Notes under the pieces: generated by a model
What the model was told of the DNA's origin: nothing
Database searches by the model: none
The model's input: the letters and a program-made list of their open reading frames with translations, nothing else
Translations under genes and position numbers: made by a program
Source: Phycisphaerales bacterium
GTDB lineage: Bacteria > Planctomycetota > Phycisphaerae > WQYP01
Assembly: GCA_027451365.1 (NCBI GenBank)
Contig: DAIDJN010000056.1
Coordinates: 64,001 to 128,000 of the forward strand
Direction of reading: 5' to 3'
Length of the DNA stretch: 64,000 nt
In this document: positions 7,306-14,378 of the stretch, in pieces
How positions within the stretch are numbered: the stretch's first letter is position 1
Layout of the letters: every line of letters starts with the position of its first letter

Positions 7306-8133
7306 ATGCCGGATCAGCCAGTTTCAGCACTTCGCCGCCGGGTGGGTTGCGTCTCTTACCTGAATTCGAAGCCATTGATTGAACCGCTGGTCGGACGGTC
7401 TGACATTTATGTGGAATTTGCCGTCCCTTCAGCCCTTTCGGGCCTGCTTGTGACTGGCGCGGTGGATACCGCCCTGTTGCCGATCGTGGATTACCAGACC
7501 TGCCCGATGGAACTGCTTCTGGTGCCAGCCGGATGCATTGGTTGTCATGGCCATACCCTGACGGTCCGGATTTTTTCGCGCGTGCCGCCTGGTGAAATCA
7601 CCCGCCTTTTTGCGGATACGGACAGCCATACCAGCGTTATTCTCGCGCAGGTTATTCTGCGTGAGTTTTATCAGTCTTCGCCTGAAATCCTGCCGCTGCC
7701 CGAGGCCCGGGGCGATCCGGTGTGGGATGCAATGGAATCCGTCCTTCTGATAGGCGATAAAGTCATCAACGCCGCGCCGCCGCCCGGCCATTACCCATGG
7801 CAACTGGACCTTGGTGACCAGTGGACAAGAAACACCGGTCTTCCATTTGTATTTGCCATGTGGATGATGCCGACAAGCCGACCGGACGCAGCGCTGGCCC
7901 GGCTGCTGGCTGCGGCCCGTCTGGCCGGTGCCGCCATGACTGATGAGCTTGTGGCCCGCTATGCCGAGTCGCGGGGCTGGCCTCCCGATTTACTGCATCG
8001 ATATTACCGGCATTATCTCGATTATCAGGTCAAGCCCGCCAGCCGGGAAGGGATTGAGCGGTTTTACCAACTGGCCGCCAGCCACAATCTGCTGGCGGTG
8101 CATCGACCGATTCGATATCTGGATATGGTATGA
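7306..8133 (+). CDS. mqnA: Chorismate dehydratase (futalosine menaquinone pathway)
   Basis: VGCVSYLNSKPL, SHTSVIL, LLIGD, DLGDQWTRNTGLPFVFAMW. Confidence 0.88.
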   Translation: MPDQPVSALRRRVGCVSYLNSKPLIEPLVGRSDIYVEFAVPSALSGLLVTGAVDTALLPIVDYQTCPMELLLVPAGCIGCHGHTLTVRIFSRVPPGEITRLFADTDSHTSVILAQVILREFYQSSPEILPLPEARGDPVWDAMESVLLIGDKVINAAPPPGHYPWQLDLGDQWTRNTGLPFVFAMWMMPTSRPDAALARLLAAARLAGAAMTDELVARYAESRGWPPDLLHRYYRHYLDYQVKPASREGIERFYQLAASHNLLAVHRPIRYLDMV

Positions 8134-11404: not shown

Positions 11405-13270
11405 CTATTTCGTCGGATTCGGCGGTCGTTTGTGACTATTGACAAACGCCGCTAAATCCCAGGCTTGTTGACCGGTCAGTGTTCCACCTTTGCCCAGCGG
11501 CATGTTGGCCCGGATAAATTCCGCTGCCAGTTTCAGTTTGTGCATTCCCGCACCGCTGTTAAAGGAATGTGGCCCCCATAGCGGGGGGAATTGATAGTTT
11601 CCATTGATTAAAAGTCCCTGGCCATGATCGCCGTGGCACATCATGCAATCCACTGTGAAAAGCCGCTTGCCGCGTACCACACTGGGTGTGAATGCCGGTT
11701 TGGCCAAAGGCCGGTACCCGCGACCGGGCAGGTTAGCCCCGGTCGGCGCGCCGCGCGCCAGCCAAGATGCGTACGTCATCAGCGCAGTCATGGTTTTGCC
11801 ATTGGCCGGTGGCGCTTTGCCGTTCTCACTGTATATAAAACATTCCTGGATGCGTTTTTCCAGTGTGACAACCTGTTTTGCCTTGGCTTGGTAACGCGGA
11901 TATGCCGCAAATGCCGCCCATAGCGGCGCGGAATAAGCCATGCGTCCACTTTGCAGATGGCAGTTGATGCAACTTAATCCATCGCCAATATATCCGCTTG
12001 CATATTGCGGTGTGTGATCGAAAATGTTTTTTCCCAGCAGCGCCATTTTTCCGTAGGCGTTGGCGGGAATTTCCGCATTGGGCGGCGGCGTGAATGAAAT
12101 AACAGAGCCGTGGTTGCTTTTTAATACTCCCCAGGGAGCGCCCGGCCCGGCTGCGGATGTGGCGCTTGGGGGTGGGCCGCTACCCGTCGCTGAAGAAACC
12201 TGGGCCGATACGCCGGCAACGCCCAGCGACCGTCTTCCGGATTTGACCGGCTTAAACCCGTATTTTTCAAAAATAGCCAGAGCCGCGGGTGACTTAAGAA
12301 ATGCCAGCCATTGCCGCGCCGCCGCGACATGTGCGGCGCCCTTTACCACGGCACCCGCATAAATCGCGGTCGTGTTGTATTTTTCGGGAATGGAAATATT
12401 GGAAATGGGATGGCCGATCCGCTCCTGAAAAATTGCTTCCGACTTCCACGTTATGCCGGCGACCGCGAGGCCCTGCATCAGAAAAAGCGGAGTTTGCCGG
12501 TGGTGAATGTGGGTTAACAGGGTCTGGCCATCGGCTACTTTTGTCTGATAAACCATTTTCGCCAGAGCATCGCCTCCCGCTTTTTTCAGTGACAGTTTAA
12601 TCTGTCGCGCCACGCCTTCCCACGCCGGATTGGGCATTACCACTCGCACACCCGGCCGCCCCAGATCTCGCAGGTTTTGAATGTGGCCGGGATTTCCCCG
12701 CGGAACCATGATGGTGAGATTGTTCGTCGCATAGCTGATCACCGGGCCGGTCAGCACACCCTTTTTAACCAGAGCCGCCACTTTTAATTTGCCTGCGGCG
12801 TACACATCCGGCTTGACGGTCCATGTCATGTTGCCCACAGTAATTGTGCCGCCGGCTTTCATTTGTTCAATGAGAATGCCCGGAGGAAGCGTTTCATAAA
12901 ATAATTTTCCTCTGATCTGCGGATAAAGTTTCTCAAATGCCTGAGCCAGAGGAGCCATCGCGAAGTAATAATTCCCGCCCACAAAAATAACCAGACGGGC
13001 ATGAAACGGATCCCCGTGAAAATCCGGCAGATCATCCACCTCAGGTACCGTGAATTTAAGTCCCTTATGGATGGCCGGATCGTTGGCCTGGCCGCTCCAG
13101 GGTGGAAAAACGCCTTCCTTATAGTGCGGCGGTTCAACCGCGCCATTCCAGCTCACCGTGGCCGGTCGCGCAGCCAACAGCAGGCCACCGGCCAGCACAG
13201 TGGCCGGCAACGCCGCCAGTACAGAAATTTTCATAGCTGAAAGCCGGCTTTTAAATGTAGATAGTGTCAT
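11405..13270 (-). CDS. Fusion of a ModA-like periplasmic oxyanion-binding domain and a TsdA-type dihaem cytochrome c (thiosulfate dehydrogenase/tetrathionate reductase family)
   Basis: Sec signal. N-domain has FYETLPPG, VPRGNPGHIQNLRDL and AAARQWLAFLKSPAALAIFEKYGF. After a Ser/Pro/Ala linker, the C-domain has CINCH, RIQECFIYSENG, CMMCH, FPPLWGPHSFNSGAGM and FIRANMP. Confidence 0.88.
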   Translation of the reverse strand: MTLSTFKSRLSAMKISVLAALPATVLAGGLLLAARPATVSWNGAVEPPHYKEGVFPPWSGQANDPAIHKGLKFTVPEVDDLPDFHGDPFHARLVIFVGGNYYFAMAPLAQAFEKLYPQIRGKLFYETLPPGILIEQMKAGGTITVGNMTWTVKPDVYAAGKLKVAALVKKGVLTGPVISYATNNLTIMVPRGNPGHIQNLRDLGRPGVRVVMPNPAWEGVARQIKLSLKKAGGDALAKMVYQTKVADGQTLLTHIHHRQTPLFLMQGLAVAGITWKSEAIFQERIGHPISNISIPEKYNTTAIYAGAVVKGAAHVAAARQWLAFLKSPAALAIFEKYGFKPVKSGRRSLGVAGVSAQVSSATGSGPPPSATSAAGPGAPWGVLKSNHGSVISFTPPPNAEIPANAYGKMALLGKNIFDHTPQYASGYIGDGLSCINCHLQSGRMAYSAPLWAAFAAYPRYQAKAKQVVTLEKRIQECFIYSENGKAPPANGKTMTALMTYASWLARGAPTGANLPGRGYRPLAKPAFTPSVVRGKRLFTVDCMMCHGDHGQGLLINGNYQFPPLWGPHSFNSGAGMHKLKLAAEFIRANMPLGKGGTLTGQQAWDLAAFVNSHKRPPNPTK

Positions 13271-13330
13271 AGTTTATCCTTTATAGCGGGGCACCCCGTT
13301 GGCTAACCGGGAGGCCGGCAGGGTCGCCTT

Positions 13331-14188
13331 TTATTTGGCATACGAATAACCAGCCATGGTCAGCAACGGTAACGTCGCGACAATGCCCGGCGTCAGCACC
13401 ACGCCTGGTATCAGATGGTTGGTCAGATCTGCGGCCAGTTCCTCATGGGTTAAATGATCTGGGTTATGTCCTTTGGCCAGTAAGCCGCCGGAAAATTCCC
13501 AGATCGCATTATGGCAACCAAGAAATACCGCGCCCCGATCCATCAGCAATGGCAGGCAATTGGCGGATGGAGAGAACAGCCCCAGCGGGTCGTTGTAATC
13601 CGCGGCACTGGCGTTCCTGACTTTGGCCGGTATGTCCAGAAACGTGTTGCGTTTGAATTTGTGGCCAAGCACCGCGGGTAAATTGTATTTTTCCCAGACA
13701 TACGCATCGTACAATGCCAGATGGCATGTGCCATGGGTGGCGGAAATCGCAATAAAGTCCGCATTCCTGAACGACCAGACCTGGGCATTGATAGAGTTGC
13801 GCATCAGATTCAGCCAGGGGCTGCCGATGTCTGTATTGTCCCAGACCTGTTTGGGACTACCGCGATAGTGCAACAGCAAGTCCAGCGCCGCGCTGTCCCA
13901 TTGGTCCGGGTGGGTAAGAATCATGGGCACTTTTTTAAACTTTCTGTGACGCCGGGTTGCCGCCAGCGCAGCGGTAAGGGCTGCGAGCTTTGTCGCCCCC
14001 GTAGGTTCCAGATCTTTTCCCGCCGGAACAGCGGCAGCCGTTTGTGCATTGGCCCGCCCGATCCCGGAAAGCAGCGCCGCTCCGGCGACGGATCCGGTGG
14101 CCAGCCACGCGAGCATCTGGCGGCGTGGAATGGTATTTTCGTCCGTGAATGATGACGCGCCTGCGATCTGGTTCGATTTTTCTGACAT
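13331..14188 (-). CDS. Tat-exported DsrE-like protein, candidate Acidithiobacillus-type thiosulfate dehydrogenase
   Basis: AAGGAG RBS before ATG 14188. Twin-arginine signal PRRQMLAWLATGSVAGAALL...ANA. Motifs SATHG and RGAVFLGCHNA resemble DsrE/DsrF-like folds. The specific function is inferred. Confidence 0.65.
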   Translation of the reverse strand: MSEKSNQIAGASSFTDENTIPRRQMLAWLATGSVAGAALLSGIGRANAQTAAAVPAGKDLEPTGATKLAALTAALAATRRHRKFKKVPMILTHPDQWDSAALDLLLHYRGSPKQVWDNTDIGSPWLNLMRNSINAQVWSFRNADFIAISATHGTCHLALYDAYVWEKYNLPAVLGHKFKRNTFLDIPAKVRNASAADYNDPLGLFSPSANCLPLLMDRGAVFLGCHNAIWEFSGGLLAKGHNPDHLTHEELAADLTNHLIPGVVLTPGIVATLPLLTMAGYSYAK

Positions 14189-14302
14189 ACAGCACTCCTT
14201 ATGAAAAAGAAACTGGAAGTTAACCTGGGCCGGTTGCCCGCCATTGTTCATATCCTAGGCCGCCAACTAGTATATTGCCAATATATAATTACGATGTCAT
14301 AT

Positions 14303-14321
14303 ATAAGTAATACTTATTACT
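14303..14321. promoter_or_regulatory. Palindromic regulator-binding site (LysR-type T-N11-A) upstream of the sulfur locus
   Basis: ATAAGTA-A-TACTTAT (14303-14317) overlaps AGTAATA-CT-TATTACT (14306-14321) within an AT-rich patch. Confidence 0.5.
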
Positions 14322-14378
14322 CATGCCGGGGGGCGGTGGCCGGGCCGGCGAGGCAATTCGATCCGCCGGACCTGTTGG

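Follow-up and report, generated by a model that had tools for sequence, protein, structure and literature searches.

What does a planctomycete do with two adjacent genes for exported proteins, one resembling the thiosulfate dehydrogenase (TSD) of Acidithiobacillus and the other joining an oxyanion-binding protein to a dihaem TsdA domain? Both genes lie on the minus strand of the window, a stretch of 64,000 nucleotides (nt) from contig DAIDJN010000056.1 of the Phycisphaerales bacterium assembly GCA_027451365.1. The TSD-family gene occupies positions 13331-14188 and the fusion gene positions 11405-13270, 60 nt apart. At a probability of roughly 0.6, the two genes would encode a periplasmic unit that converts thiosulfate to tetrathionate, with its first two parts acting as a substrate-handling front end for the oxidoreductase that follows. 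Two neighbourhood surveys show that such genes form a three-slot cassette consisting of a DsrE-fold protein, a permease-less binding protein, and an oxidoreductase, which is TsdA or DoxDA and never both.

The TSD-family protein has 285 amino acids and is similar to AFE_0042 of Acidithiobacillus ferrooxidans. It scores 350 bits against the NCBIfam model NF052225 'thiosulfate dehydrogenase' (cut-off 300) over profile positions 1-259; the Acidithiobacillus TSD copies reach 416 and 407 bits. A twin-arginine translocation (Tat) signal peptide covers about residues 1-48 (14045-14188, minus strand; cleavage site placed by eye) and contains the motif PRRQMLAWL, whose R22-R23 are nearly invariant among 91 homologues. 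The first-pass annotation, made from the sequence alone, had placed a Tat-signal protein with the motifs SATHG and GAVFLGCHNA 60 nt upstream of the fusion on the same strand, and its coordinates and motifs are confirmed. SATHG spans residues 149-153, and GAVFLGCHNA includes Cys225 (13514-13516, minus strand) of the CHN motif. This cysteine is invariant in 91/91 and 65/65 aligned homologues and stands at the strand end where DsrE proteins bear their active cysteine, while Cys155 and Cys211 are unconserved.

The DsrE-like nature ascribed to the Tat protein at first reading is invisible to Pfam, and the predicted structure agrees with it. Pfam assigns no family to the protein, and PF02635 (DsrE) is unmatched there and anywhere in the genome. 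This lowers the case for PF02635 membership, not for DsrE-like working. Searches of Protein Data Bank (PDB) sequences with the protein or its profile gave nothing meaningful, and some of its database homologues have been automatically named DsrE/DsrF family. An AlphaFold2 model based on the alignment of 91 homologues has a predicted local distance difference test score (pLDDT) of 95-99 across residues 61-285. The nine best matches in a VIA structure comparison against 48,161 chains are all of the DsrE/F/TusBCD type (Z 7.3-12.4), and the first unrelated chain follows at Z 4.7. They include 2pd2 (Z 12.4; root-mean-square deviation (rmsd) 1.3 over 105 residues), 1l1s (11.1), YchN (9.1), and DsrEFH (8.3). 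Foldseek puts the same DsrE-type chains on top, but with E > 0.001. As modelled, the Tat protein adopts a DsrE fold with insertions. Cys225 closes the third strand of the model (strand 221-225, followed by helix 226-238) and aligns with the VCNNS cysteine of an ordinary DsrE, a weak match of 21 columns and 9% probability. DsrE3A from Metallosphaera cuprina makes Cys-S-thiosulfonate from tetrathionate (PMC4175335; this and the other papers cited by PMC number were available in part and are cited for those parts).

The fusion gene encodes 621 amino acids with a Sec-type N-terminal signal (by eye). Its oxyanion-binding domain (12236-13135, minus strand) belongs to the sulfate/molybdate-binding superfamily, with PF13531/SBP_bac_11 matching residues 93-340 at E 8e-48. 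The domain stays under the NCBIfam cut-offs for ModA, Sbp, and CysP, and a profile search with it returns SubI, ModA, and Sbp at E 1e-9 to 1e-8. A Ser/Gly/Ala/Pro-rich linker of about 40 residues (12116-12235, minus strand), of low complexity and unconserved in the alignment, leads to the TsdA dihaem domain (11408-12115, minus strand). Here, Pfam recognises SoxA-TsdA and cytochrome c domains over residues 431-613. The domain has 219 bits to PDB 5lo9, 174-177 bits to chains named thiosulfate dehydrogenase, and 50.8 bits to the SoxA profile (cut-off 110), and is thus nearer to TsdA than to SoxA. Haem and catalytic residues were assigned by alignment to 5lo9 and 4wqc as C434xxC437H438, Arg473, Cys477 (11840-11842), C542xxC545H546, and Asn589-Met590. 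Among 38 aligned homologues, both CXXCH motifs, Arg473, Cys477, and Met590 show no variation, and Asn589 hardly any. The cysteine and methionine matching Cys477 and Met590 are haem ligands in TsdA (PMC5146829). Judged by the alignment, the TsdA domain is intact and keeps all haem and catalytic ligands. A total of 25 full-length fusions were aligned; modelling of the complete fusion gave low confidence (mean pLDDT 49.8, predicted template modelling score 0.34), and that model was set aside. A database protein of 826 amino acids, named Candidatus Hydrogenisulfobacillus filiaventi, has the same binding protein fused to a 490-residue C-terminal region without Pfam match, possibly a fourth kind of partner.

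Since 2013, TSD has reportedly counted as a third type of thiosulfate dehydrogenase. All parts of the present module come from known families, and a tsd-sbp pair has already been described in Acidithiobacillus. In A. ferrooxidans, the Tat protein AFE_0042, the solute-binding protein AFE_0043, and AFE_0044 (doxDA) form one sulfur-induced operon (PMC2754497). AFE_0042 was named TSD, and the tsd-sbp-doxDA cluster is duplicated in this species (PMC6335251); A. ferruginosus CF3 has the same duplicated layout. The homology to AFE_0042 and AFE_0043, which the first-pass annotation had suggested, is borne out by the NF052225 score above cut-off and by reciprocal best matches with the pair of A. ferruginosus CF3. 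The identity is 55% between the Tat protein and Tsd1, and 66% between the binding domain and Sbp1. The sole tblastn matches of Tsd1 and Sbp1 in the planctomycete genome are the two window genes. AFE_1498, which has been characterised as ModA/WtpA in A. ferrooxidans, is a separate gene and uninformative on AFE_0043. In the available part of a 2019 review, TSD and TsdA are treated as separate systems of different organisms, with TSD typical of iron-oxidising Acidithiobacillus (PMC6335251).

The neighbourhood of TSD was surveyed in the best 80 of 124 confirmed loci in Genome Taxonomy Database genomes, among which kin are not independent. The binding-protein gene is next to TSD in 72/80 loci. TsdA-like sequences are found in 46 loci, fused to the binding protein in 18 and as separate genes in 28. 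Among the latter are a SoxA-like fragment, a gene located some 4 kb upstream, and one whose locus lacks the binding protein. DoxDA occurs in 12/80 loci and a TsdB-like gene in 21/80, and TsdA and DoxDA are found together in 0/80. All 21 Planctomycetota loci carry the binding protein, 18 fused to TsdA and three ended by a contig edge. In thirteen loci, the TsdA gene is directly followed by genes for cytochrome oxidase subunits I and II, accompanied by a CtaG-like gene, and other loci add SQR, TauE, YeeE, SoxB-like, or sox genes. Whole-genome searches of the 22 TSD genomes without a clear complete partner at the locus found TsdA-like genes in 17, DoxDA in five, and either in 19.

A second survey was anchored on the binding protein and covers the best 80 of 438 metagenome loci, where kin are again not independent. 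TSD is directly upstream in 53/80 loci, and ordinary DsrE is beside the binding protein in 14 further loci, eight found by tblastn and six by a Pfam scan of 35 open reading frames (ORFs) picked from 13 of the 19 loci still without a DsrE-fold neighbour. A DsrE-fold neighbour, TSD or ordinary DsrE, is therefore present in 67/80 loci. DoxDA accompanies the binding protein in 36/80 loci, TsdA-like sequences in 24/80, both in 0/80, and a ModB-type permease, with the query used, in 0/80. For lack of a permease found with this query, a molybdate or sulfate transport role of the binding protein was rejected; the genome's other PF13531 gene adjoins its own permease-ATPase-like gene. The suggestion that the Tat protein and binding protein are a generic pair that plugs into different oxidoreductases is upheld by both surveys, in which the partner is TsdA or DoxDA.

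Several observations weigh against a front end for thiosulfate oxidation. Purified TsdA enzymes work without such partners (PMC5146829), and the front end is thus regarded as accessory. The binding domain is about equally like sulfate- and molybdate-binding proteins, which leaves thiosulfate a putative ligand. The binding protein is missing from 8/80 TSD loci, and six of these eight genomes have no close homologue; the other two have one elsewhere, beside DoxDA and an ordinary exported DsrE. Similarly, 13/80 binding-protein loci are without a DsrE-fold neighbour. About six of these end close to the gene, and the others are true exceptions or query misses, some amid unrelated genes. Asn589-Met590 is the pattern of the tetrathionate-reducing TsdA of Campylobacter jejuni. 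Lastly, the review reports A. ferrooxidans TSD as an enzyme by itself, with tetrathionate-forming activity at low pH (PMC6335251).

According to the same review, purified TSD reduced neither ubiquinone nor cytochrome c (PMC6335251), which is in line with the front-end reading. The reported tetrathionate-forming activity with no known physiological acceptor (PMC6335251), together with the NF052225 membership above cut-off and the redox partner that accompanies TSD nearly always, would favour a different arrangement, in which two parallel thiosulfate dehydrogenases share the binding protein. TSD would then be a true cofactor-free enzyme, and TsdA or DoxDA mainly its electron acceptor, re-oxidising the TSD cysteine. 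We regard this as unlikely. Ordinary DsrE, for which no dehydrogenase activity is reported, takes the slot in 14/80 loci and in two more, and the TsdA domain retains its own catalytic Cys477 and Arg473. The DsrE fold is not known to have a redox cofactor site, which also counts against TSD as an enzyme. A carrier is favoured over a dedicated dehydrogenase because ordinary DsrE can occupy the TSD slot. In Acidithiobacillus, too, TSD probably carries sulfur and is not an enzyme that works alone. A wider claim is more tentative and falls somewhat short of even odds: TSD may not be an independent enzyme but the DsrE-fold carrier slot of a widespread three-slot cassette, in which the binding protein channels substrate to the enzyme and has been fused to TsdA at least twice.

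The Asn-Met pair at haem 2, as in C. jejuni TsdA, raises the question of direction. In reverse operation, the unit would be a tetrathionate reductase, whose binding domain captures tetrathionate and which receives menaquinol electrons via alternative complex III at low oxygen. All TsdA enzymes are bifunctional, with the couple at +198 mV (PMC5146829), a menaquinone biosynthesis gene lies in the window (7306-8133), and the presumed TetH query found no tetrathionate hydrolase that could consume the product. On the other hand, the Asn/Lys position before the methionine does not by itself set the direction of TsdA (PMC5146829), and the same Asn-Met is present in 5lo9 and in nearly all homologues. 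The same front end is found with DoxDA in the sulfur-induced operon of a thiosulfate oxidiser (PMC2754497), and with TsdB and cytochrome oxidase in 13 loci. Reductive operation is thus quite improbable, and thiosulfate oxidation is the preferred reading.

Partner exchange was followed on trees of 70 rows, comprising 69 loci and the window; eight loci without binding protein and three with a truncated one were excluded, and 14 rows without a clear partner were left unlabelled. DoxDA and TsdA switch at least seven times on the binding-protein tree and at least eight times on the TSD tree. The approximately unbiased (AU) test rejects a grouping of DoxDA in one clade (p 0.0001). The distances on the TSD and binding-protein trees correlate (r 0.73; 0.67 without the fusions). 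Read from these trees, the partner has been exchanged repeatedly. No direction is claimed, since these trees come from quick searches without rooting and include non-independent kin. The earlier proposal that TsdA took the place of DoxDA is accordingly unsupported as to direction, with at least seven switches on an unrooted tree. The planctomycete fusions form one clade (Shimodaira-Hasegawa-like approximate likelihood ratio 100). A single database protein, P0298, has the order binding protein-TsdB-TsdA and falls outside them (AU p 0.006, long branch); it is a probable second, independent fusion. Another candidate, P0393 (599 amino acids, TSD plus binding protein, one sequence on a 1,973-nt contig), was rejected as a fusion. 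In place of the conserved TSD C-terminus, it has unrelated sequence that continues into a second signal peptide, suggesting a frameshift.

In the proposed mechanism, the permease-less binding domain would capture thiosulfate and pass it across the 40-residue linker to haem 1/Cys477 of TsdA. TsdA would then join two thiosulfates into tetrathionate, a coupling that is established for the TsdA family. Electrons would leave via haem 2 (His/Met590) to a c-type cytochrome and then to the caa3 oxidase, a route that is proposed because no TsdB was found. Like Metallosphaera DsrE3A, the Tat-exported TSD may hold thiosulfonate or sulfane sulfur covalently on its cysteine, Cys225, and could load or unload the unit without taking part in electron transfer. 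For the cell, this would be a modest addition to respiration during heterotrophic life, with tetrathionate as the end product.

The host genome is 93% complete. It has a gene cluster for alternative complex III and caa3 oxidase with additional c-type haems, a separate contig with a monohaem cytochrome c, and genes for TatC and for haem c assembly. In contig C59 (28000-47000), the alternative complex III genes run straight into the caa3 oxidase, whose subunit II has two CXXCH motifs. Contig C41 (locus L084, 3888-9375) has two small c-type cytochromes and two Pfam-less proteins before Ahb/NirJ-type radical SAM haem synthesis genes; one of these cytochromes weakly matches cytochrome 579 and is a candidate electron acceptor for the TsdA domain. 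The menaquinone biosynthesis gene of the window is on the plus strand, matches PF02621, and indicates menaquinone as the respiratory quinone. Menaquinone has a low potential. The thiosulfate/tetrathionate couple lies at +198 mV (PMC5146829), so that a cytochrome-linked TsdA would fit such a host better than the quinone-reducing DoxDA. In contig C58 (137571-146032), ORFs resemble by eye a NiFe hydrogenase small subunit and HypF, which suggests a second inorganic energy source.

With the queries used, tblastn found no SoxABCDXYZ, SQR, TsdB, DoxDA, YeeE, TauE, or SorAB in the genome, and a DoxD profile search found none either. No match was obtained by tblastn with the presumed A. ferruginosus TetH, a query picked by position and beta-propeller hits. 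RuBisCO was not found; other carbon fixation routes were not searched. Three rhodanese domains are present, away from the operon. Sulfur-supported mixotrophy, which the first-pass annotation had hinted at, is not sustained in the strict sense, as RuBisCO, Sox, SQR, TetH, and DoxDA were not found in this genome, and the gene content points to a lithoheterotrophic energy top-up as the better fit. In the available part of one survey, a mine-drainage Phycisphaerae genome of this sort is given only its oxidases, and thiosulfate oxidation genes are credited to a different genome alone (PMC8357290).

The same gene content bears on a protective cassette, which in mine water would rid the periplasm of reactive sulfur species (thiosulfate, polythionates, and polysulfide) and use the cysteine of the DsrE-fold protein to trap them. 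Such a role is consistent with the lack of any downstream sulfur-oxidation pathway found in the genome and with the SQR, persulfide-dioxygenase-like, TauE, YeeE, and peroxiredoxin genes in several homologous loci. None of these genes is beside the operon here, and the genome searches gave no SQR, TauE, or YeeE with the queries used. The cytochrome oxidase genes dedicated to the cassette in 13 loci speak for energy conservation. Protection is therefore very improbable as the main role, and the oxidative unit is retained.

The closest relatives of the locus are in Planctomycetota or Phycisphaerae. TSD and TsdA co-occur in exactly the same 18/61 genomes, the host and its relatives, and within the family in the same 17/36 genomes. 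Both were found in 0/24 genomes of other families in the class, and TSD in 0/300 further genomes sampled across the phylum. The genes that flank the module vary among planctomycete genera (DNA methylases, transporters, and housekeeping genes in L001-L021) although the proteins form one clade. Its presence within these genera is patchy, which suggests relocation and repeated loss.

The longest frame of the TSD gene is 13331-14251. The ATG at 14188 is its likely start, as relatives begin at the matching site, and is preceded at 6 nt by a Shine-Dalgarno-like AAGGAG (14195-14200, minus strand), with the same spacing in relatives. The 60-nt spacer (13271-13330, minus strand) has AAGGA ahead of the fusion-gene ATG, and no terminator-like site was found in it. 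We infer co-transcription of both genes from just this gap and the conserved order. Three RNA runs from the source study, labelled mine drainage metagenome, contain next to none of the sequence. The upstream region had been described as AT-rich and palindromic. The AT-rich tract is real (14266-14325, 60 nt, strand not assigned), with a GC content of 23% compared to about 55% for the window, and comparable tracts are found 5' of the TSD gene in most Planctomycetota relatives (judged by eye). The palindrome does not stand out: the inverted repeats are imperfect (70-90%) and are equalled in about 9% of 300 shuffles. The tract is likely a promoter or regulatory region; promoter and terminator scans of the locus gave results at chance level. 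The operon flanks are unrelated, with a rhomboid-like gene upstream and a convergent gene without family downstream.

Some surveyed loci have further arrangements. In Methylobacterium, Acetobacteraceae, and Lichenibacterium, L024 (7926-15551) and 12 similar loci have the order tsd-sbp-tsdB-tsdA followed by genes for oxidase subunits II and I, SCO-like (in those checked), and CtaG-like proteins. This cluster is a complete thiosulfate-to-oxygen chain in cultured plant-associated bacteria. In the available part of the source, Methylobacterium oryzae CBMB20 oxidises thiosulfate without tetrathionate (PMC4161386); its strain differs from that of locus L025 and was counted neither way. In L067 (1945-3987), a di-haem cytochrome c peroxidase (MauG-like) domain is fused to a TsdA-like domain upstream of tsd-sbp, and the locus also encodes a multihaem cytochrome, a DsrE, and SoxB-like proteins. 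In the metagenome loci L104, L117, L121, L122, and L132, and in L026, L029, and L031, the binding protein adjoins a multi-haem protein of some 690 amino acids that ends in a TsdA domain; the third gene in all these loci is either TSD or ordinary DsrE.

Searches of the open literature, with subscription papers not covered, found no account of tsd-sbp pairing with TsdA, the fusion, the either/or rule, or the TSD fold. How TSD is built and works, and how it is distributed relative to TsdA, are listed as open questions in the 2019 review (PMC6335251). A concrete answer that can be tested is offered by the predicted DsrE fold, the invariance of Cys225, and the pairing with either TsdA or DoxDA. A binding protein that feeds an enzyme rather than a transporter would be unusual. 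The two-gene form is a small, likely soluble cassette and could thus be expressed and reconstituted without a membrane enzyme, and cultured carriers of the unfused form (Methylobacterium, Acidocella, and Acidithiobacillus) allow genetics. The operon would mark an overlooked sulfur reaction in mine-drainage Phycisphaerae. If the carrier-slot reading is true, three separately treated systems merge into one machine, and if thiosulfate is oxidised here, a family of mine-drainage planctomycetes joins the thiosulfate oxidisers.

Compared to the Acidithiobacillus tsd-sbp-doxDA cluster, the first two genes are identical in kind and order, and an ABC (ATP-binding cassette) permease is absent from both. 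In contrast, the third slot, which in Acidithiobacillus is the membrane protein DoxDA, is filled here by a dihaem TsdA that is joined to the binding protein, and the planctomycete module is single-copy, without an adjoining rhodanese or ResA gene. TetH and RuBisCO were not found in the planctomycete host (tblastn/genome search, 93% complete), unlike in Acidithiobacillus. The TsdA part resembles TsdA and TsdBA (PDB 4wq7 series, 5lo9; C. jejuni TsdA, PMC5146829) in its two CXXCH motifs, distal cysteine of haem 1, methionine of haem 2, active-site arginine, and PPLWG and NMP motifs. It differs in that its N-terminal partner is a substrate-binding protein and not the electron acceptor TsdB, and in that a DsrE-fold protein is co-encoded. 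The binding protein shares superfamily PF13531 with the ABC binding proteins Sbp, CysP, and ModA, while it stays below the family cut-offs, had no permease at 160 loci with the query used, and is far more conserved inside its own clade (58-75%). The modelled TSD protein is similar to the DsrE/F sulfurtransferases (ST0148 2pd2, MTH1491 1l1s, YchN 1jx7, DsrEFH 2hy5, and DsrE3A) over about 105 residues at 1.3-2.0 Å rmsd, with a conserved cysteine closing the third strand. However, it is about double their size, has an extended N-terminus and a long insertion, and is Tat-exported.

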